64,000 nucleotides of DNA. Origin: an uncultured delta proteobacterium (GTDB lineage Bacteria; Desulfobacterota; Binatia; Binatales; Binataceae). A program made the translations under genes and the position numbers. Shown here piece by piece: positions 6,633-19,935 of this stretch (position 1 is its first letter; each line of letters opens with the position of its first letter). The stretch covers positions 2,432,001 through 2,496,000 of the forward strand of contig CAWEEQ010000004.1 in the NCBI GenBank assembly GCA_963808235.1, in the 5' to 3' direction. Below the pieces are notes generated by a model that ran no database searches, was not told where the DNA came from, and was given only the letters and a program-made list of their open reading frames with translations.

Positions 6633-7508
6633 ATGGTTATGGCACACCAACAAGCGGCTACCGTATCAACGGAGCCGACCCATCGTTACGTTGAGGCCTC
6701 GGGACTCAAACTTCACTACCTGGATTGGGGCGGAGACGCGGGCAAGCGCACTTTCGTGTTGCTGCACGGCGGTGCTGCGCATGCGCATTGGTGGGACGCT
6801 GTCGCGCCGCTGCTGACGCCGTACGGGCGCGTGCTCGCGCTCGACTTTCGCGGTCATGGCCGGAGCCAGTGGGCGCGGCCGCCGATCTACGGGCCGCCGG
6901 CATACGTCGAAGACGTGCGCGCGCTTATCGAGAGCCTCGGCACGCGAGTCGTGTTGGTGGGACATTCGATGGGCGGTGCGGTCGCACAGTGGGTCGCGGT
7001 GACGCATCCGGAGCTGCTCGCGGCGCTGATCATTGTGGATGCGCCGCACGGACCGCCGCCGCTGTTTCGCCGGCTGATGTGGCGATGGCGCCGCAAATCG
7101 CAAGGCGGCAAGCGTCCCGAGCTGCGCTCCCCCGCCGACATCATCAGGAGGTTCCGCCTGCAGCCGCCGGAGACGAACCTGACGCGGGTCGAGCTCGAGC
7201 GGCTCGCGATGCTTGGCGCGGAGCAATTGCCGACTGGCGCGTGGGCGTTCCGCTTCGATCCTGAAACGCGCGCGTGGCGAAAGCATGGCGCGAAAATGAC
7301 ACGGCCGAAGCTTAAGAACATCAAGATGCCGACGCTGCTGCTGCGCGGCGAAAAGAGCGGGCTAGTCAGCGCGCCGCATGTGCAACGGATGCATCGGAAG
7401 ATTCGCGGATCGGTGCTGAAGGAAATTCCGCGCGCGTATCATCACGTGCCGCTGGACAATCCGGGCGACACTGCGGCGGCGATTATCGAGTTCGTGGAGA
7501 AGCAATAG
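6633..7508 (+). CDS. Alpha/beta fold hydrolase
   Basis: LLHGG, DFRGHG, GHSMGG nucleophile motif, C-terminal His. Confidence 0.93.
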   Translation: MVMAHQQAATVSTEPTHRYVEASGLKLHYLDWGGDAGKRTFVLLHGGAAHAHWWDAVAPLLTPYGRVLALDFRGHGRSQWARPPIYGPPAYVEDVRALIESLGTRVVLVGHSMGGAVAQWVAVTHPELLAALIIVDAPHGPPPLFRRLMWRWRRKSQGGKRPELRSPADIIRRFRLQPPETNLTRVELERLAMLGAEQLPTGAWAFRFDPETRAWRKHGAKMTRPKLKNIKMPTLLLRGEKSGLVSAPHVQRMHRKIRGSVLKEIPRAYHHVPLDNPGDTAAAIIEFVEKQ

Positions 7509-7938: not shown

Positions 7939-8802
7939 TCATTTGAGGTCGGCGAGGAACTCCAAAATTGCTCGATTGGTTTCTTCAGGCGCTTCATTCT
8001 GGGTCCAATGTCCGCAATCGATTCGCTTGACGGTGACTTTGGGCACGTAGTTCGCGATGGTGTCGGCCATCTCGGGACGCAGCACCGGGTCTTTCTCGGC
8101 GAGAATCATCAGGGCCGGAGTCATGACCTTGCGGCCGGCGTGATCGGCGGTGATTTCCCAGTTGTGATCGAAGTTGCGGTAGTACTCGAGGGCGGGAGTG
8201 ATTCCGCCGGGGCCGCGAAATCCGTCGGCAAAGACTTTCAAGTCGGCGTCGGTGAAGACGTCCTTGCGCGACGAATTGTTGATGAAGGCGTTGCGGATGA
8301 AGCCGTCGATGTCGGGCTCGATCATCGCTTCGGCGTCGCCGCGCTTTTGGAAAAATCGGATGTAGTCGAAGCGCTTGTCGGTCATCAGCTCGAGTGGACG
8401 CTTGGGAAGACGCGGCATGAACGACACGTTGAGCGCGATCAATCGCGAAAGAGCCGCGGGATATTCGAGCGCGAAGCTCCATAGGATGATCGCGCCCCAA
8501 TCATGCCCGGCGACAACGGCCTGCTCGCATCCGTAGGCGCGAATCAGACCCATCACGTCGGCGCATAGGGTCTTGATGTCGTAGGGACCCTTGCGCTCGG
8601 TCAAATTGTAGCCGCGCAAGTCGGGCGCGACGACTTTGAAGCGGGCGCCGAGCGGCGCCATCTGATGACGCCATGAATAGTGGTTCTCGGGAAATCCGTG
8701 CAGGAGCAGAACGAGAGGCCCCTCGCCCTGCGTGATGCAATGAAAGCGAATCCCGTTGGCGCTTACGTACTCATGCTTCCAGGTCTCGGCGACGTTCGGC
8801 AT
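7939..8802 (-). CDS. Epoxide hydrolase-type alpha/beta hydrolase
   Basis: HGFPE, GHDWG, YYR and GHWTQ motifs. Confidence 0.93.
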   Translation of the reverse strand: MPNVAETWKHEYVSANGIRFHCITQGEGPLVLLLHGFPENHYSWRHQMAPLGARFKVVAPDLRGYNLTERKGPYDIKTLCADVMGLIRAYGCEQAVVAGHDWGAIILWSFALEYPAALSRLIALNVSFMPRLPKRPLELMTDKRFDYIRFFQKRGDAEAMIEPDIDGFIRNAFINNSSRKDVFTDADLKVFADGFRGPGGITPALEYYRNFDHNWEITADHAGRKVMTPALMILAEKDPVLRPEMADTIANYVPKVTVKRIDCGHWTQNEAPEETNRAILEFLADLK

Positions 8803-8865
8803 CGGGAAAAATCAAAACCTCCATAGATGCGGAAGTCGCTATGTAAGCGCCGCGGCGCGAATCGA

Positions 8866-11800
8866 TCAAGCGCCCGGCTGTTTCGGCCCAGTCTGCGCTG
8901 TCCAGCCGCGCACGACGTCGCTCAACTCGCGCGCATGAATTATGTTGAGTCCGAAGCGAATCGGCAGCGAGCGGGGCAGCATCTCGACCGCCTCGCGTCC
9001 GCCGGGGCGCATCGCGATCCGGTCAAATAGGCGCGAAGAGACGGTCCTGCGCTGACCGCGGAGATGATTGTCGCTGTAAATCTTTACGATCATCTCGGAG
9101 CCGAGCCGCACCGCGTCGGACAGGTTCATCGAGTCGGCCGCGAACTGATCGAGACCCTGCTTGAGCGGGAACTGATCCGGATTCCACACCGCCACGGACC
9201 CGGCGCGCATCAGAGTCTCGATGCTCGGGGTGGTGAACGAGTAACCCCATCCGGCCAGCTTGGTGCTTGCAGTCGCGAGTTCCGAGGGATCGAGATTGCC
9301 CGCCTGCGCGCGCGCCTGCAGCGCCGCCTCGGTCCACACGCGGCGCACCCCGAATTCGGTCTTGGCCAGGTCGGCGAGGATCATGTCGTCGGTCCACAGC
9401 ACGTGACCGGGCATCGAGGCAATCGCGATGCTCTCGGCGCCGTTACGGCCGAAGAAGGCGATCAGCCGTTTGCGCCGATCATGATCGATCGAGGCGAGCA
9501 CCGAGCCGTCGCGCACGCGGCATACTGACTGCAATTCGTCAGCGAGACTCTTCAACTGAACGTCCACCCGTTTGCCGTCGCCGGCGTTTCCGAGCGCTGC
9601 GGAGAATCCCGGCGGCAGCCGGAGCAGCGTGTCGTCAAACGCCAGGCGCCGCAGTTCGGCAAGCGTGGACTGCGAAATGACGAACTGGCGCGGCCAGGTC
9701 GGCAACAAGTTGAGGCGTCCGAGCATGCACAGGGTCGCGATCGCGGTGAGGTCGAGCACGATCGCATTGGCACGCTCGAAGGCTCCCAGAGCGGCCTCGA
9801 GTTCCTCGGTCGTGCCGGTGCAGCATTTGATCGGCGCATCGGGGCTTTGGGCGAGGATAAAGAGGGTCTGCAAGTCGTTCAGGTTGATGCGCTCCGCGAC
9901 CGCATGGATCGGCACCGGCTTGCTCGCGTAGATCCGTTCGGCGTGCTTCAGGAACGTCCTCGCGCTTGCCGCTGCCGTTGCCGTTTCCATTTCCACTGGT
10001 CGCTTCGAACATCTGCTCGAAGCTGTCGTTCATTTCATTCCACGGAATCGTTTCGGAACTCACCGGGCACATCTCGATTTCGGTTTCGCCGGGAAATCGC
10101 GCGTGAAATTTGCCCAGACAGTCGATGTAGCGCCACGCGTACTTGCTGGTGATCTGCTTCACGGTGGCGTATCTGCGGCTGAAGCGCCCCTCGGGCAACT
10201 GAAACCTGTCGCCGACCTTCTTGCCCTTGAGTGCTTTGATCATGGGGTGTTGCGGGCCGTACTCGTCACGAGCTTCGTCGGCGTCGTTTCCCTCTTCGAG
10301 AACGATCCATCGTTCGGCGGTCGAATTGTCCTCGACGAAACTGAGCGCAGCGCCGGGCCCTGCGGTTTCGAAGTCCGGCACGTGCGGCATCGGGCCAATC
10401 GGTCCGAGTGCGGCCAGGTAGGCGCGATGCGAATCGACGCTGGCATTCTGCCGGCGCAGGAGATCGTAGGCGTAGACGAGCGCCTCATTGGCGCGGCCAC
10501 CGTCGCGCATGAACTGCACGGCAGCGCGGCCGAGTGCGGGCGGAATGTCGCGCGACGACGGCATCGCATTGGGATCGGCAACGACCAGATCCACCTTGCC
10601 GAGCCGCGCGGCAATGATCGAGCGGCGGAGTTTGAGCACGCGGTCATCAGGATGTTCTTGCAGAATTTTACCGATTGCCGCGAGCGCGGCCTCGGGGTCG
10701 TTGCGCTCGAGCTTGTCGAGTTGGCTCTTGGCGTCGCCCGTGCCGGCGCCCTGCTCAGGATGAAGTTGGCGCGCGATGTCGACGACTATATCTTCGCGGC
10801 CGAGACGGCTTGCGCAATCGAGCAGGCGGCGGGTATCGGTTCCAGTGGTGCCAATCGGCGCCAGCACCTGCCATAGCGCAAGCGCGTCGCGATAGCGGCC
10901 GAGATCGTGGAGGAGTGCGGCGAGCTTGCGGCGATGGTCGGCGCCGGTGTCTGGCGTGAGCATCGACAGAGCCTCATCGGCGAACTTCGAGGCCTGATCG
11001 AACTTGCCCTGGGTCAGACGAAGATTTGCACGCAGGGTCAGCATGGTGACCGCGGGCAAGCGCGGGTCGTCGATCGATGTGAGCAGCACGTCGGCCTCAT
11101 GGTAGCGCTCGAGTGCGGCCAGCGCTTCGGCGGTGACGGCAACCGCGAACGGAAAATCGCCGGCGGGAATGGATTCGGGGCGCGCAATCGAGTGAATGAG
11201 AAGCTCGGTCGCCTCCTGCAAGTCGCCGGGATCGTCGCGCTCGCGCAGGGTGACCGCGAGATGATAGTCGGCGTCGTCGCGCCCGCCGACCGACGCCGCG
11301 CGGCGCAGCATCTCGATCGCCTCGTTCAGGCCGCCGCGCGAGCGCAGCACGATTCCATACTCGCACAGGCCGTTAGCGTCCTCGCGCTCGAGCCCATGCG
11401 CCTGTTCGATATCCTTGCCGGCGCCGTCGGTGTCGCGCAGCGCAATGCGCGCCTGGGCGCGGCCGATCAGCGCCTGCACTTCGCTCGAGGCCAGCCCTTC
11501 GCTTTGCGCAAAGGTGAGCGCCTGGGTGAAGCAGGTCTCGCTTTCGCGCACACGGCCGTTGTCGGTTTGCGCGGGCGCCTCGGTCGCGCCGGGGCCTGCC
11601 GCTTCGAGCTCGCCGAGCAGGATAGCCTGCCCGAGCACGAGCCACGGGATCGAACTGTTGGGCAACGCGGCGCTCGCCAGACGCGCATAGTGCTCGGCAC
11701 GATCGTAGTGGGTGTCGAGCAACGCGCGCCGGGCCATGACGACCGCGACTTCGGGATCGGTAGAGAGTTCAGGCGCGACGTTTTCTTCGAGCGACCCGGC

Positions 11801-12709
11801 GTCGAGCGATCGGGGTGCGTTGTTCAGCCACAACGCGACCGCGCGGGCGCTATTCGGAAACTGCATGCGGAGGCGGTCAGCCAGTGCGAAGGCGCGATCG
11901 CGCTCGCCAAGGAGTTCGTGCGCAAGCGCCTCATTGGTGCAGGCGTTTTCCTCGCCCGGCTGGAGCGATTTGGCCGCGATGAAGAGCATCGCAGCCTTGC
12001 GCGCCTCGCCTTCCTTCAGCCACGCGACGCCGAGATACGACAGCACTCGAAACTTGTCGGGGTTCGAAAGTTGTGACCACCTCTGCTCGCGAATCCTGAG
12101 CAGCCCGAGACGACCGAGCTGATACTGGCGGTTTTCCAGAAAAGCCGCGGCGGTGGAGATCTCCTCTCCCAGGGTATCTGAAGGTCCCCCCGCCGCGGGC
12201 TCGCATCGCGCCTCAAGATGAACCACCGCGTCGGCGCGGGTCAGGGCCTGGCGCTTCGCGGCGGTTCCGAAATCAGTAAGGATCTGAGGATACTCGTCCA
12301 GCAGCTCTTCTATATCTTCCCAGGTCAGAACTTCGATCGCCGAGATTCCACCACTGCGGTTGGCGCGGTTGAGATCGAATAGCGAGCGCTGCAAGCCGTT
12401 GGGCTTGGCGGCCGTCGTCGCGATCACGAAGCGTCCGATAGGCAGCTTCAGGCTCGCGGCGTGGTCAACAGCAGCCTTGATCTCGGCTACGGTGAGTTCG
12501 CTACGTGACTCGCGCAGCTCGCACTTGACCGCGGCGAGTCGCGGGCGTCCGCTGATCTCGATCAGGTTGATGCCCTTCGCGGCGAGTTCCGGATCGCGGA
12601 AACGCTCGAGCGAGGGCAATTGCCAATGCCGCCGCAGCAGCTTCAGACAGAGTCTTTGGAACTCGTCGGAGCTCCGCGGGAGAGGATATTCCGGGGCGAA
12701 TGTAGCCAT
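8866..12709 (-). CDS. Degenerate Mrr-like REase + TPR + GreA/B C-terminal + PIN domain protein (one gene split by a +1 frameshift at ~9953)
   Basis: N-terminal REase-like fold, long TPR tract, GreA-C motif HPMIKALKGKKVGD, PIN motifs VLDLT / STLAEL / LWTDD. Removing one base in gacgttcctg joins ORF 9635..12769 to ORF 8866..9996 (EDVLKHAERIY). Confidence 0.8.
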
Positions 12710-12819
12710 AGTGTAGAGTTTGATAACATAGTGGCGGGTCTCAAGGAAGGCCCCAAACGGACCCATCACTTTCGGCGTTCGAAGAGCGCTGATAAGATGA
12801 CTTTTCCACGTTTTTCGCC

Positions 12820-14816
12820 ATGCTTAGTCTCGACAATCTCTCCAAGTCTTACGGGGATCGCAAGATTCTGGACGGCGTCAGCTGGTCGATGGCCGACGAC
12901 GCGCGGGTCGGGCTGGTCGGACTGAACGGCGCTGGCAAATCGACGCTGCTCAAGATGGTGGCGGAAGTGCTCCCGCTCGACTCGGGCCGAATCACGCGTC
13001 CGCAGCGGAGCCGGGTCGGATACCTGGCGCAAGATGCGCCCGAGATGGGTGGGCGCTCGGTGCTGCGCGAGACGCTGGCGGCGCTCGAGCGGATGCAAGC
13101 GCTCGACGTGCGGCGCAAGGAAGTAGAGGAGATACTCGCGCACGAACATTCGGGACCGACGCACGACGCGGCACTCGAAGAACTCGGCGAGGTGCTGACC
13201 GAACTGGAGCATCATGATTTCTACAGCGCCGAGAGCCGCGCCACGTCTGTGCTGTTCGGGCTCGGGTTCACCGAGGCGGACCTGATGCGCGACGTCGCGG
13301 AATTCTCGGGCGGAATCCGGATGCGAATCGCGCTGGCGAAGCTGCTGCTCGACGCGCCGGAGTTCATGATGCTCGACGAGCCGACCAATCATCTGGATAT
13401 CGAAGCGCGCAACTGGCTCGAGGATTTCCTGTGCGCGTACCAGGGCGGGATCGTGCTGGTCTCGCACGATCGCTACTTCCTCGATCGCGTGACCACGCGC
13501 ACGGTCGAGGTCTCGCGCGGACGGCTGACCGAATATGTCGGCGGATACTCGCGCTACCTGGTCGCACGCGAGGAACGCTATGCGCTCGAGATGGCGGCGT
13601 ACGAGCGGCAGCGCCTCGAGATCGAACACATCGAGAGTTTCATCAGCCGCTTCCGCTACCAAGCGAGCAAGGCGCGGTTGGTGCAGAGCCGCATCAAGCA
13701 ACTGGAAAAGGTGGAACGGCTCGAGCCGCCGGAGGGCTCGCAGAAGCCGCCGGCGATTTCGTTTCCGCGCTGCGAGCGCAGCACGCGGCGGGTTTTCGAG
13801 CTCAAGGGCGCGGTCAAGAAGTATGGCTCGCTCACGGTTTACGACGGCGTCGATCTGACGATTGAGCGCGGCGCGCGAATCGCGTTGGTCGGTCCAAACG
13901 GATCGGGAAAATCCACCATGATGAAGCTGCTTGCGGGGGTCGAACCGATGACGGGCGGCGAGCGAATCGTCGGGGCGAGCGTGCAAGCGGGATACTTTGC
14001 GCAGAATCTCGCCGAGTCGCTCAACTATGAAACGACCGTGCTCGACGAACTGAGCGCGAGCACCGCGGGCCGCACGATGGGCGAGATTCGCGCGCTGCTG
14101 GGCGCGATGCTGTTTTCCGGCGACAACGTCTACAAACGCGTCAGCGTGCTCTCGGGCGGGGAGCGCGCGCGCCTGGCGCTGGCCAAAGTGCTCGCGCGGC
14201 CGAGCAACTGCCTGCTGCTCGACGAGCCGACCAACAACCTCGACATCGTGGCGAAGGACACTCTGCTCGACGCGTTGCGGCGTTTCCCGGGCACCGTGAT
14301 CATCGTGAGTCACGATCGTTTCATTTTGAATGAACTGGTGAACGAGGTGCTCGAAGTCGGCCAGGGGCACGCGATTCGGTACCTCGGCAACTACGACGAT
14401 TACCTCGCGAAGAAGGCTGCGATGGAAGCCGATGATGTGGCTGCGTCGAAGCCGGCGACCTCGCCGCATACGCACGAACTGCGCGGCACCAACGGGCAGG
14501 TGACGCATCCGAAGAATGCGGACCGGGCGAAAAGCGGGAAATCCAGGCACGTCGAGCCGTCGAACGACGATCGCGACGCAATCCGCAAGCGGGAACGAGC
14601 GTTGCGCGTCAGCGGAGTCAGATCGAAAAGCAGATCGAGGAGAAGGAAACCGAACGCGCCGCGCTCTCGACCGAGATGAACGACCCCAACTTCTATCTCG
14701 CGCGGAAAGATGCCGACGACTTGATTGCGCGCTACGAACTGCTCGGCCGCGAGATCGAAACGCTCTACGCCGACCTGGTCAAATTCGACACGCCCGCGGC
14801 GGCCTCGAACAACTAG
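12820..14816 (+). CDS. ABC-F family ATPase (Uup/YheS-like), with a frameshift at ~14598 before the C-terminal coiled coil
   Basis: Two ABC domains (GLNGAGKST, FSGG, LDEPTN; GPNGSGKST, LSGGE). The alternate frame gives VARQRSQIEKQIEEKETERAALSTEMNDP...NN*, the typical CTD. Confidence 0.92.
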
Positions 14817-18841: not shown

Positions 18842-19678
18842 TCAGCGCGACGCACTGGCCTCGGTCAGGGAGAAGCGAATCGGGACCAGCACCCAGCTTT
18901 CGACCGGGGCATTGTCGCGCCGGGCCGGTACGAAGCGCCATCGGCGGCGCACGGTCTCGAGCGCACTGTCGTCGAGCGCGTCGAAGCCGGAGGACTCGGC
19001 AATCTCGGCGCGCTCGACGCTGCCGTCGGCGCCGACGAGCACGCGGATCGTCACAGTGCCTTGCTGGTCGCGGCGGCGCGCGGTCGAGGGATATACAGGC
19101 GGAGGATTGTTGCCGTAATCAGCGTGCGCGAGCGAGCTGCCGTTGCCCTCGCCGCCGGCGTCGGAGAGCCCTTGACCGCCTCCAGAGCCATCGCCAGCGT
19201 TTGCGGACGATTCGGTGTTGGAAGAACGCGAACCGGATTCGAGGCCCCGAGGATCCGCGCCCGGCGCTGATTTCGGAGCGGCGGCCGGCGCAAGGCTCGC
19301 GAGTTTCGCATCCGGACGTTTCGCTTCATGCTCATGATCGCTGCGGCTGGCGGCGACCGAACGACGAACCGGTCTGTGCGAGTGTGGACGTTCGGGGATC
19401 AACAACGGACCCGGCTCCGAGCGAATCGGAATAGCCGGAATCGCGCCGCCTCCAGCCGAGGTCGAGCGGCCGATCGAACCGTCGCCCACTTCGACCAGGT
19501 AGGCGAGGACGAAACCGCTGTGGGGTTTGGCAAGTGCGGGCGCGAAGTAGATGAGCGCGGCGAATGCGGCGGCATGGGCGGCGATCGAGACGGCGAACGA
19601 GGTGGCGTGCGAGCCGGCGCGCGTCGATCCAGATCGCGCGTCATTCGTCAGCTGAGATTTGTCTTGCCCGTCTTCCAA
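18842..19678 (-). CDS. tonB: Energy transducer TonB
   Basis: N-terminal TM with SIAAHAAA, Pro/Ala/Gly linker, TonB-C (YP..ARRRDQQGTVTIRVLVGADG..SSGFDALD..A..WRFVPA); start uncertain (TTG 19678). Confidence 0.88.
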   Translation of the reverse strand: MEDGQDKSQLTNDARSGSTRAGSHATSFAVSIAAHAAAFAALIYFAPALAKPHSGFVLAYLVEVGDGSIGRSTSAGGGAIPAIPIRSEPGPLLIPERPHSHRPVRRSVAASRSDHEHEAKRPDAKLASLAPAAAPKSAPGADPRGLESGSRSSNTESSANAGDGSGGGQGLSDAGGEGNGSSLAHADYGNNPPPVYPSTARRRDQQGTVTIRVLVGADGSVERAEIAESSGFDALDDSALETVRRRWRFVPARRDNAPVESWVLVPIRFSLTEASASR

Positions 19679-19713
19679 CTTTCCACCGTCGCCGGGCCGA
19701 GACTTCGCGGATT

Positions 19714-19791
19714 GAAAAGGCCAGGAGCGACGGGGCGCCGCCGCGCTGATATGCGGCGACTGAATCGGAAAACGTCGTGCGACTCCTGGAG
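19714..19791 (-). terminator. Candidate expression-platform terminator of the riboswitch
   Basis: ccaggag...ctcctgg stem followed by CCTTTT on the minus strand. Confidence 0.45.
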
Positions 19792-19831
19792 CCTCCCTCT
19801 CCCGCGAAGGTAATTGCGGCTCCGTTCGATT

Positions 19832-19935
19832 CGCGAGGTAGCCTGGCTGGGCGAGATTGTGATCTCGCCTTACAGTTGCGGGGCAGCGCCGGTCTCGCAC
19901 CGGCTTTCCCTGCGCGAATCTGAGAGCACACTACG
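19832..19935 (-). ncRNA. Cobalamin riboswitch (compact)
   Basis: Minus strand reads AGGGAAagCCGGTGCGAGACCGGcGCTGCCCCGCAACTGTAA...AGCCAGGcTACC, matching the B12-element core and B12 box; lies upstream of tonB. Confidence 0.88.

Follow-up and report, generated by a model that had tools for sequence, protein, structure and literature searches.

[quoted passage not shown]

Proteins of the TPR-GreA/B-C-PIN ("TGP") family form a large predicted immune family, in which a single member has been investigated and a mechanism has yet to be solved for any. As described in the available text of Kaur, Iyer, Burroughs & Aravind (eLife 2021, PMC8195603), they join a TPR, GreA/B-C and PIN core to one of 13 N-terminal effectors, a restriction endonuclease (REase) among them, are mostly encoded by standalone genes, and combine a fast-evolving core with effectors differing from one relative to the next. 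In the literature searched the only experimentally studied member found was Agp of the Bab/Agp system, which, in the accessible part of the preprint (bioRxiv 10.1101/2024.11.07.622273), protects E. coli against T5 in a response abolished by a GreA/B-C point mutation, and for which that part reports no activity independent of the partner Bab, which makes the view of PIN as a first-line RNase tentative for the family. The exact term 'TPR-GreAB-C-PIN', and 'GreA B-C' together with PIN and TPR, were absent from the literature searched; a 2020 eLife paper (PMC7159879) does not describe the TGP system and the DefensePredictor paper contains nothing on it. The window analysed here, a stretch of 64,000 nucleotides from the metagenome-assembled genome of an uncultured soil bacterium of the Binataceae, holds a gene of this type with an apparently broken reading frame and an altered REase active site, amongst housekeeping genes. 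We ask whether this gene is decaying, still serves immunity, or has acquired a different role.

In the open reading frame listing the locus appears as two overlapping minus-strand frames, 9635..12769 (1044 aa) and 8866..9996 (376 aa), that share 362 nt. Joining the segments 12709..9953 and 9951..8866, with one extra base dropped, gives a single 1,280-aa protein, in agreement with the original prediction of a one-base correction near 9953. The TGP gene so defined occupies 8866..12709 on the minus strand and, with the surplus base at 9951-9954 omitted, comprises 1,280 codons plus stop, without internal stops when translated with NNN at the break codon; its start, an ATG at 12709 ('MATFAPEYPLPRS'), was set by the starts of homologues. 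At the break, homologues read ...GKREDVLKHAER.. in a single frame in the protein alignment; the window copy reads GKREDV in one frame (A) and then LKHAER in the other (B), and the DNA (gac gtt c ctg aag) places one surplus base within the minus-strand TTCC at 9954-9951, a short way downstream of a hexanucleotide-repeat linker rich in Gly and Asn.

The original prediction had also called for sequence evidence at 9953, and the public data give no confirmation of the frameshift: both Logan contigs that bridge the site (runs X1 and X3) lack the base and are in frame, with 176 and 220 nt aligned and no further differences from the window, these contigs being of low depth (2 and 3.8) and from runs of the same study, from which the assembly possibly stems. 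Each of the 35 full-length orthologues is a single open frame, 34 of them of 1,275-1,763 aa and one, at a contig start, of 1,230 aa. Since the surplus base is missing from both contigs and the orthologues are unbroken, the frameshift at 9951-9954 is most likely an assembly error, and a programmed frameshift is rejected on the same grounds. Two plus-strand antisense frames inside the gene (10103-10876 and 10907-12076) were discounted as high-GC artefacts because homologues match the minus-strand frame. The gene is single copy in its genome, and its GC3 of 0.783 falls inside the range of 0.70-0.84 seen in 37 long frames (two of which are the antisense frames inside the gene), consistent with the host-like codon use noted at the outset.

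Profile searches and structure prediction, which had been proposed as a check of the domain assignments, recovered all four parts of the predicted REase-TPR-GreA/B-C-PIN order. Residues 1-150 (12260..12709, minus strand) form a predicted Mrr-type restriction-endonuclease fold (AF2 model of the window protein's own residues 1-170, pLDDT 77.7), with an alpha-beta-beta-beta-alpha-beta core made up of H14-28, E34-36, E49-51, E58-64, H74-85 and E91-98; this head compares with AF1548 (1y88) and the Avs4 nuclease domain (8dgf_B) at Z 11.9, and with the set of AF1548, Avs4, MspJI, AspBHI and LlaBIII at Z 10.1-11.9, whilst Mrr_cat_2 or Mrr_cat lies above cut-off in 4 of the 25 relatives scanned. A TPR or helical-repeat array follows at approximately residues 216-775 (10385..12064, minus strand; Pfam TPR_14, TPR_1, TPR_2, TPR_12 and TPR_19), the profile-search matches being spread over about residues 238-730 with TPR_14 above cut-off. 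Next come a GreA/GreB C-terminal-like domain at residues 780-860 (10130..10372, minus strand), which includes HPMIKALKGKKVGD, a TGP-type PIN domain (9361..9759, minus strand), and an all-helical C-terminal domain (8869..9324, minus strand; model helices 396-511) that is conserved in alignments, follows PIN in all family members and gives generic helical-repeat matches only (Z ~7-8).

The PIN assignment is made by PF20698 (PIN-TPR-GreABC), which matches residues 80-212 of the second frame, scoring 46.3 bits where the cut-off is 27.8 (E 6.5e-12), falls at the same place in the genome, and is matched in 15 of 16 aligned relatives. The PIN and GreA/B-C folds were modelled on an orthologue (L004) 88% identical to the window protein. 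In this model PIN gives Z 10.0 to 2mdt and 9.6 to VapC4, and GreA/B-C gives Z 12.6 to GreA 9a7t_B (74 residues aligned, 1.6 Å), 12.1 to Gfh1 and 10.6 to E. coli GreA; these Z-scores come from a second look with VIA-align, Foldseek alone having placed GreA at only E 2.6e-3 for the 512-residue model. At the sequence level, the GreA/B-C profile PF01272 picks out 2 of the 16 family members, with a best E of 0.002. A sequence search against solved structures returned no matches for a profile of the C-terminal half and one chance match (E 0.92) for a profile of the head, so that the relationships to GreA, PIN and REase rest on fold comparison and Pfam. PADLOC assigned no family to either frame, and NCBIfam gave nothing beyond sub-threshold TPR-type matches in them.

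With the PF20698 PIN domain, a GreA/B-C domain between TPR array and PIN, the array itself, a REase head and a standalone gene all present, the protein is a REase-headed member of the published TGP conflict family, sharing domain order, PIN profile, standalone organisation and Mrr-type head subfamily with the REase-headed version as set out in the available text (PMC8195603; PF20698). It has the TPR, GreA/B-C and PIN core in common with Agp of E. coli ECOR25, but where Agp, in the accessible part of its description (10.1101/2024.11.07.622273), has an N-terminal amyloid motif, the partner Bab and a prophage defence island, the window protein bears a head of REase fold, stands without a partner and lies in a housekeeping setting. 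The C-terminal globular domain of GreA, GreB and Gfh1 superposes on the GreA/B-C domain to 1.6-1.9 Å over 74-75 residues, although here the domain forms part of a 1,280-aa protein and does not match solved Gre factors at the level of sequence. As PF03449, the N-terminal coiled-coil finger, has no match in 16 family members and a TPR array precedes the GreA/B-C fold, the TGP protein is not a Gre factor and appears, from the predicted fold, to share the docking domain only. The acidic residues of PIN (D, E, E, D and D), assigned to catalytic positions by motif position rather than from a solved structure, are kept in 93, 88, 94, 94 and 94 of 94 clade sequences respectively, and all are present in the window copy; the motifs VLDLT, LAEL, ES and WTDD are likewise conserved in the clade, as would be expected had the PIN active site remained intact, as predicted. 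Both the fold and the published model suggest that PIN may be an active RNase.

The head, which alone is matched by 581 cluster representatives at E <= 1e-10, presents a different picture. In an ungapped profile alignment the window copy has Q18, N48 and K62-C63-E64 in place of the canonical E, D and Q-C-K, the same changes (FE to FQ, GVD to GIN and QCK to KCE) as were originally read from this one copy. The alignment of homologues that had been called for shows them to be common to the orthologues and not a private defect: across the Binataceae clade N/H/D...[KR]-C-[DE] replaces D...Q-x-K, with the lysine gone in 105 of 108 homologues, whereas 135 of 148 outside representatives, including 53 of 55 full-length ones, have the canonical D..QxK. 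The Mrr-type heads of Avs4 (8dgf), AF1548 (1y88), MspJI, AspBHI and LlaBIII are alike in fold, and that of Avs4 also in its N-terminal effector position, but they keep D...(E/Q)xK, the lysine of which is Asp or Glu in the clade and the aspartate of which is Asn in the window copy. With the catalytic Asp of strand 2 and the (E/Q)-x-K of strand 3 replaced, the head has an Mrr-type fold yet is not a canonical PD-(D/E)xK enzyme (PF04471 / PF13156). Within the clade position 18 is E, Q, R or G and position 48 is N, H, D or T, variation as expected were these catalytic positions released; Glu51 does not vary, and a basic residue is held at position 62 and an acidic one at 64 throughout. Because the charge swap from Q-x-K to [KR]-x-[DE] is conserved, and Glu51 with it, the change is not one of simple decay, and the site may have been rewired.

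Selection on the gene is purifying and strongest on the head and PIN. The dN/dS is 0.164 for the whole gene, 0.116 for the head, 0.171 for TPR, 0.256 for GreA/B-C (range 0.26-0.31) and 0.079 for PIN, with 0.07-0.12 for the neighbouring ABC-F gene; the value for the head argues that it is probably still functional. GreA/B-C is the least constrained part of the gene, which is unexpected for a domain fitting a highly conserved polymerase surface and counts against the docking picture.

The setting is as first described, a solitary gene among housekeeping genes and divergent from an ABC-F gene (12820..14679, plus strand; assigned by Pfam) that marks the locus; the other neighbours are alpha/beta hydrolases, an epoxide hydrolase and an acyl-CoA dehydrogenase, and around the gene the window contains no defence island or mobile-element neighbours. 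The comparison of synteny suggested for the homologues places ABC-F beside the TGP gene in 27 of 29 orthologous loci. ABC-F is also retained in all five examined genomes that lack the TGP gene, three of which have an empty site with the hydrolase directly beside ABC-F; a functional pairing of the two genes is accordingly rejected, and the divergent arrangement reflects shared locus ancestry. No same-strand partner is conserved, the downstream hydrolase differing between loci, and the alpha/beta hydrolase found here (7939-8802) was dismissed as a partner since it occurs in only 3 of 29 other loci.

The TGP gene is present in 10/10 genomes of its own genus, 11/11 of a second genus, and 3/3 and 8/10 genomes of two further genera, and in none of most other genera; 83 of 121 Binataceae genomes, including whole genera of high completeness, are without it, and the gene is therefore dispensable. 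PF20698 did not exceed its cut-off in any of the 150 genomes taken from the phylum's other families. The TGP and ABC-F trees, both unrooted, recover the same clades, and the distribution of the gene needs one presence/absence change on the ABC-F tree in a test covering 5 of the 83 genomes that lack it. The published TGPs, as far as the available text describes them (PMC8195603), differ from a clade that is without D...Q-x-K, occupies one fixed locus, is inherited vertically over several genera and is under purifying selection. Conflict-type behaviour, in the sense of fast evolution, patchy or mobile distribution and variability between relatives, is thus replaced here by a fixed locus, congruent trees and a dN/dS of 0.16, rapid and patchy evolution being a behavioural trait of the family that lies outside its architectural definition. 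These properties fit the suggestion in the original prediction that the gene is domesticated or resident, and we found neither a confirmed frameshift or decay, nor missing PIN or GreA/B-C domains, nor canonical orthologues.

On balance we favour, as the probable explanation, an intact and chromosomally resident TGP member whose Mrr-type head lacks the canonical catalytic set, a stable heirloom that most likely still works as an immune-type, transcription-coupled RNase. By analogy with the model in the available text of Kaur et al. (2021) and with the published part of the Bab/Agp work, the TPR array would serve as sensor or assembly surface, GreA/B-C would keep the protein on RNA polymerase, at the rim of the secondary channel, and PIN would cut RNA there. 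That the GreA-like domain docks on the polymerase is suggested by its fold and the published model; a predicted complex of the GreA/B-C region (126 aa) with the organism's own beta-prime segment near the secondary-channel rim (230 aa) scored 0.00, a value obtained without controls that speaks neither for nor against docking. The head, a predicted DNA sensor by fold and published model, would in our reading no longer be a DNA-cutting, cell-killing back-up effector; it would persist as a non-catalytic module that binds DNA or a ligand or associates with itself. Loss of the suicidal DNase would have left the TGP protein cheap to carry, and we propose that for this reason a normally mobile defence gene of fast turnover became stable in several Binataceae genera.

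This explanation has to be weighed against three others. A decaying pseudogene, in which the frameshift is genuine in the organism and the gene on its way out, is very improbable. The surplus base is present in the assembled sequence, and the terminal branch of the window copy in the TGP tree measures 0.16 compared with 0.003-0.05 in genus mates, yet the two otherwise identical bridging contigs lack the base, no other stop or shift occurs across 1,280 codons, and the pairwise dN/dS of the window copy (0.15-0.17) is similar to that of other copies; moreover, the ABC-F terminal branch of the same genome is also long (0.088), so the long branch reflects the species, not decay. Less readily dismissed, but still distinctly unlikely in our judgement, is a rewired nuclease in which a migrated set of Glu51, Lys/Arg62 and Asp/Glu64, perhaps with Glu16 or Glu35, cuts DNA, which would make the protein a standard REase-headed TGP whose DNase acts in abortive infection. 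Migration of catalytic residues is established in the PD-(D/E)xK superfamily, and not only are Glu51 and the charges at 62 and 64 kept clade-wide, but 62 and 64 share a face of the strand (58-64 in the model) that bears Q-x-K in canonical relatives. However, of the four canonical positions, 18 and 48 are free to vary within the clade, metal binding being hard to reconcile with Asn, His, Asp or Thr at position 48; this analysis identified no solved nuclease whose strand carries a K-x-E motif, and a suicidal DNase would make the lengthy vertical retention harder to explain.

Full domestication appears somewhat more plausible than either, though we still regard it as unlikely: the protein would be a housekeeping transcription-surveillance RNase, held on RNA polymerase by GreA/B-C and cutting nascent or backtracked RNA, whilst the inactive REase fold touches DNA in the manner of the REase-like domain of Rpb5. 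The fixed locus (27/29), the presence in every sampled species of two genera (10/10 and 11/11), the congruence with the ABC-F tree, the selection on head and PIN, whose dN/dS equals the ABC-F value, the host-like composition, a 25-nt leader nearly invariant across genera and a neighbourhood without defence or mobile genes would all be accommodated, and fold comparison of the head brings up Rpb5 chains (Z 6.1-6.7). Indeed, the missing PADLOC match, the absence of defence or mobile neighbours and the housekeeping-like selection fit a non-immune role equally well. Against this, 83 of 121 family genomes manage without the gene, the Rpb5 matches are weak and have only the general fold in common, GreA/B-C is the fastest-evolving part, and the available literature records a housekeeping role for no family member. 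It is accordingly a tentative idea that in this Binataceae lineage a defence protein has turned into a permanent, RNA-polymerase-associated RNA-surveillance factor, with a dead REase fold reused as DNA-contact module in a bacterial parallel to eukaryotic and archaeal Rpb5; if true, an immune protein would have been recruited into core gene expression.

The REase-headed TGP family was already known; what is unusual here is the clade-wide altered active site together with the fixed, constrained locus. A clade with a disabled head, in which head, PIN and architecture nevertheless remain constrained, is in effect a natural separation-of-function mutant, which suggests that the TPR-GreA/B-C-PIN core may have a useful activity of its own and that the REase fold may have a non-catalytic role. 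It also illustrates cleanly how a defence gene that is mobile and costly may take up long-term residence in a genome.

Of the sampled words, a fraction of only 0.05 was present in one RNA run (X20), and a sigma-70 scan of 8700-12900 returned no sites. A terminator-like hairpin with T-run lies just past the stop (8816..8837, minus strand), but with two such sites in the region and 3.1 to be expected by chance, it lends weak support to a monocistronic gene. Directly upstream of the start, the 25 nt at 12710..12734 (minus strand) are near-invariant in an alignment of 12 intergenic regions from across genera, and may represent a control element.

The gene at 8866..12709 (-) has every architectural feature of the TPR-GreA/B-C-PIN (TGP) family, but not the mobile, variable and fast-evolving behaviour usual for it. 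TGP systems were defined by Kaur, Iyer, Burroughs and Aravind (eLife 2021, PMC8195603); that paper describes mostly standalone genes, in which one of 13 effector domains, REase and HNH included, comes before a core that is constant 'but rapidly evolving' and is made up of TPR repeats, a GreA/B-C domain and a novel type of PIN domain. In the model proposed there, the GreA/B-C domain binds the coiled coil of beta-prime at the secondary channel, the PIN domain cleaves the transcript as it is extruded, and the N-terminal effector serves as a back-up suicide device. The TGP member Agp was studied with its partner Bab in a 2024 preprint (10.1101/2024.11.07.622273), which reports that together they defend E. 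coli against T5 through abortive infection, that a point mutation in the Agp GreA/B-C domain abolishes the response, and that no Agp activity independent of Bab was seen. Literature searches turned up no paper on a REase-headed TGP member or on the Binataceae copies, and 'Binat' is absent from the 8 text-form supplementary files of PMC8195603.

Two long frames overlap on the minus strand in the ORF listing, 9635..12769 (1044 aa), whose tail past ...GNGNGNGSGKREDV is junk-like, and 8866..9996 (376 aa), which carries meaningful sequence from ...FLKHAERIYASKPVPIH onward. A database search with the first matched 112 proteins at 86% down to 46% identity (with a few outliers at 22-32%), nearly all of them single polypeptides of ~1,245-1,317 aa; those that carry names come from metagenome bins of Candidatus Binatus or Binataceae and are called 'tetratricopeptide repeat protein', 'PIN domain-containing protein' or 'Transcription elongation factor, GreA/GreB family'. 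In an alignment with 14 homologues the window stays in one frame as far as KREDV and continues in the other with LKHAER; the DNA at the break (gac gtt c ctg aag) has a single extra base in TTCC (9954-9951). Read from the homologues' ATG start at 12709 and with the break codon masked as NNN, the gene comprises 1,280 codons and 0 stops, so that the coordinates, length and one-base correction at ~9953 given in the original prediction are right. That prediction had also proposed inspecting the reads at this base. When Logan contigs from four soil-metagenome runs were mapped over 9000-11000, the only two bridging the site (run X1, 9889-10065; run X3, 9765-9985) both left out one base at 9953 and otherwise agreed fully with the window; their depth is low (2 and 3.8), and they come from a single study that is possibly the source of the assembly. 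The gene is full-length and in one open frame in 35 other family genomes and is split only in the window's own (4.59 Mb in 4 contigs), where the surplus base directly follows a Gly/Asn-rich hexanucleotide-repeat linker of variable length among relatives. Given the bridging contigs, the one-frame orthologues and this position, the frameshift is most likely an assembly error and the gene intact. The linker itself (window 9955-10010; also seen in orthologous loci L004, L006 and L020) lies between the GreA/B-C and PIN parts, is encoded by imperfect hexanucleotide repeats and, within one genus, is anywhere from ~10 to ~50 residues long; run X4 has contigs that stop or depart from the window at this point (loose ends at 10000).

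The assignment as a REase-headed TGP protein, made in the original prediction, is borne out by profile and structure comparisons. PF20698 (PIN-TPR-GreABC) matches residues 80-212 of the second frame at 46.3 bits (cut-off 27.8) and was found in 15/16 aligned family members, TPR matches span ~residues 238-730, and a Gre N-terminal coiled coil was not detected by Pfam in the 16 members. Because the window's frame is broken there, the C-terminal half (residues 780-1280) was modelled on the 88%-identical orthologue L004 (pLDDT 83.5). Residues 1-77 of this model superpose on the GreA C-terminal domain (9a7t_B, Z 12.6, 74 residues, 1.6 A; Gfh1 Z 12.1, E. coli GreA 10.6, GreB 9.4), and residues ~210-375 on PIN domains (SSO1118 Z 10.0, VapC4 9.6, PAE2754 9.6, minimal RNase P 9.0, SMG6 8.7). 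The head model (the window's own residues 1-170, pLDDT 77.7) has the restriction-endonuclease core alpha-beta-beta-beta-alpha-beta, matching AF1548 and the Avs4 nuclease head (both Z 11.9), MspJI (10.7), AspBHI (10.3), LlaBIII (10.1) and FokI (9.7); among its canonical relatives, Pfam places Mrr_cat_2 or Mrr_cat above cut-off in 4/25 scanned. In its canonical D..QxK form, this Mrr-type subfamily also occurs joined to TIR, nSTAND1, nSTAND5 and family-2 glycosyltransferase domains (proteins P0130, P0201, P0236 and P0129), and so serves as an effector head common to several architectures of conflict systems.

A profile built from the heads alone of 14 Binataceae sequences, searched against 1.84 billion cluster representatives, retrieved 2,065 proteins at E <= 0.001 (581 at <= 1e-10). 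In ungapped register the window's Q18 / N48 / E51 / K62-C63-E64 stand against canonical E / D / D / Q-C-K, as the original prediction (FQ, GIN, KCE) had read them. Canonical D..QxK is present in 135 of the 148 new representatives aligned among the matches listed (53/55 of those full-length), the 13 that lack the Lys being eight short fragments with the Binataceae-type motif, four with Q-C-R and one gapped. By comparison, 105 of the 108 aligned homologues from the first-frame search have lost it, carrying [KR]-C-[DE] or, rarely, L-C-E or R-V-E, and the three canonical ones are outliers at 29-32% identity (P0111-P0113). Within the clade, E, Q, R, G or T occupies position 18 and N, H, D or T occupies position 48, whereas Glu51 and the following Ser-Gly-Arg are invariant. 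On these alignments, the alteration is derived and clade-wide, a fixed new pattern equivalent to a charge swap on the catalytic strand, and not random decay. The acidic residues of the PIN domain, noted in the original prediction, are present in the window and in 93, 88, 94, 94 and 94 of the 94 full-length clade members.

The gene is single-copy in the window's genome, and matches occur in 38/121 family genomes surveyed at one per species (28/77 of high quality), the positives here and in the comparisons of synteny and non-carriers including G087 and G044, which are flagged unpublished. It is found in 10/10 genomes of its own genus and in 11/11, 3/3, 8/10 and three times 1/1 of others; most other Binataceae genera have none (e.g. 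0/11, 0/7, 0/7), and PF20698 was above cut-off in 0/150 genomes of the phylum's other families (4 of them in the same class). The ABC-F gene (12820-14679, +) is divergent and adjoining in 27/29 orthologous loci. At the exceptions, L007 (G087) and L016 (G023), its place upstream is taken by same-strand ORFs, which implies at least two moves of the gene or rearrangements of the locus. On the other side, the 6633-7508 hydrolase has an orthologue in 10 loci, and an extra alpha/beta-hydrolase gene at 7939-8802 (-) intervenes in the window; a close relative occupies the same place in only 3/29 other loci, and the ABC-F flank is accordingly the more stable of the two. Five non-carrier genomes from five genera all possess the ABC-F orthologue, directly beside a 6633-7508-type hydrolase in 3/5, i.e. 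an empty site. In an unrooted ABC-F tree of 27 carriers and five non-carriers presence requires a single change (SH-aLRT 95), and the TGP gene tree has the same clades. The host-like codon use originally described also holds: at 0.783, GC3 falls inside the 0.70-0.84 range of the window's 37 listed long frames (two being antisense frames inside the gene). On the unrooted trees, the most economical history would be either one gain of the gene by a Binataceae ancestor or one loss along a branch, with loss of the canonical nuclease site followed by vertical inheritance as a useful, low-cost gene.

Nei-Gojobori dN/dS, pooled over 36 pairs of nine same-genus sequences, is 0.164 for the whole gene, 0.116 for the head, 0.171 for TPR, 0.256 for GreA/B-C, 0.307 for the helices after it, 0.079 for PIN and 0.180 for the C-terminal helical domain. 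The first 440 codons of the ABC-F gene give 0.07-0.12 in the same genomes; constraint on head and PIN is thus about that of a translation-factor gene, and is loosest in the polymerase-docking-like part.

The original description of a one-frame gene with these domains and an altered head therefore stands; its interpretation, a dead REase sensing DNA and a GreA-like domain docking on RNA polymerase to give a defensive or domesticated RNase, is supported in part. We consider the protein probably an RNase of immune type, coupled to transcription and carrying a head that no longer catalyses; polymerase docking, RNase activity and any role of the head are predictions. Full domestication, making the protein a housekeeping transcription-surveillance factor, we rate a considerably weaker candidate. 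A rewired but active nuclease head is less probable still. That the gene is a real pseudogene, as its split frame in the assembly might suggest, seems very improbable. The protein is a naturally occurring separation-of-function form within an immune family about which little is understood.

The 25 nt just 5' of the TGP start codon (12710-12734; columns 1-25 of A7, an alignment of 12 intergenic regions) are near-invariant across genera (AGTGTA..TAACA..TG, plus strand), although synonymous coding sites have diverged, and the ABC-F side carries a conserved CTTTCGGC-N17-CTGATAAGAT resembling -35 and -10 elements. Elsewhere in the window, a cobalamin riboswitch (RF00174, 19816-19933, -; 45.6 bits, gathering score 31.5) extends over the start annotated for an ORF (18842-19900, -) that encodes a TonB C-terminal domain; the true start of this gene is probably further downstream.
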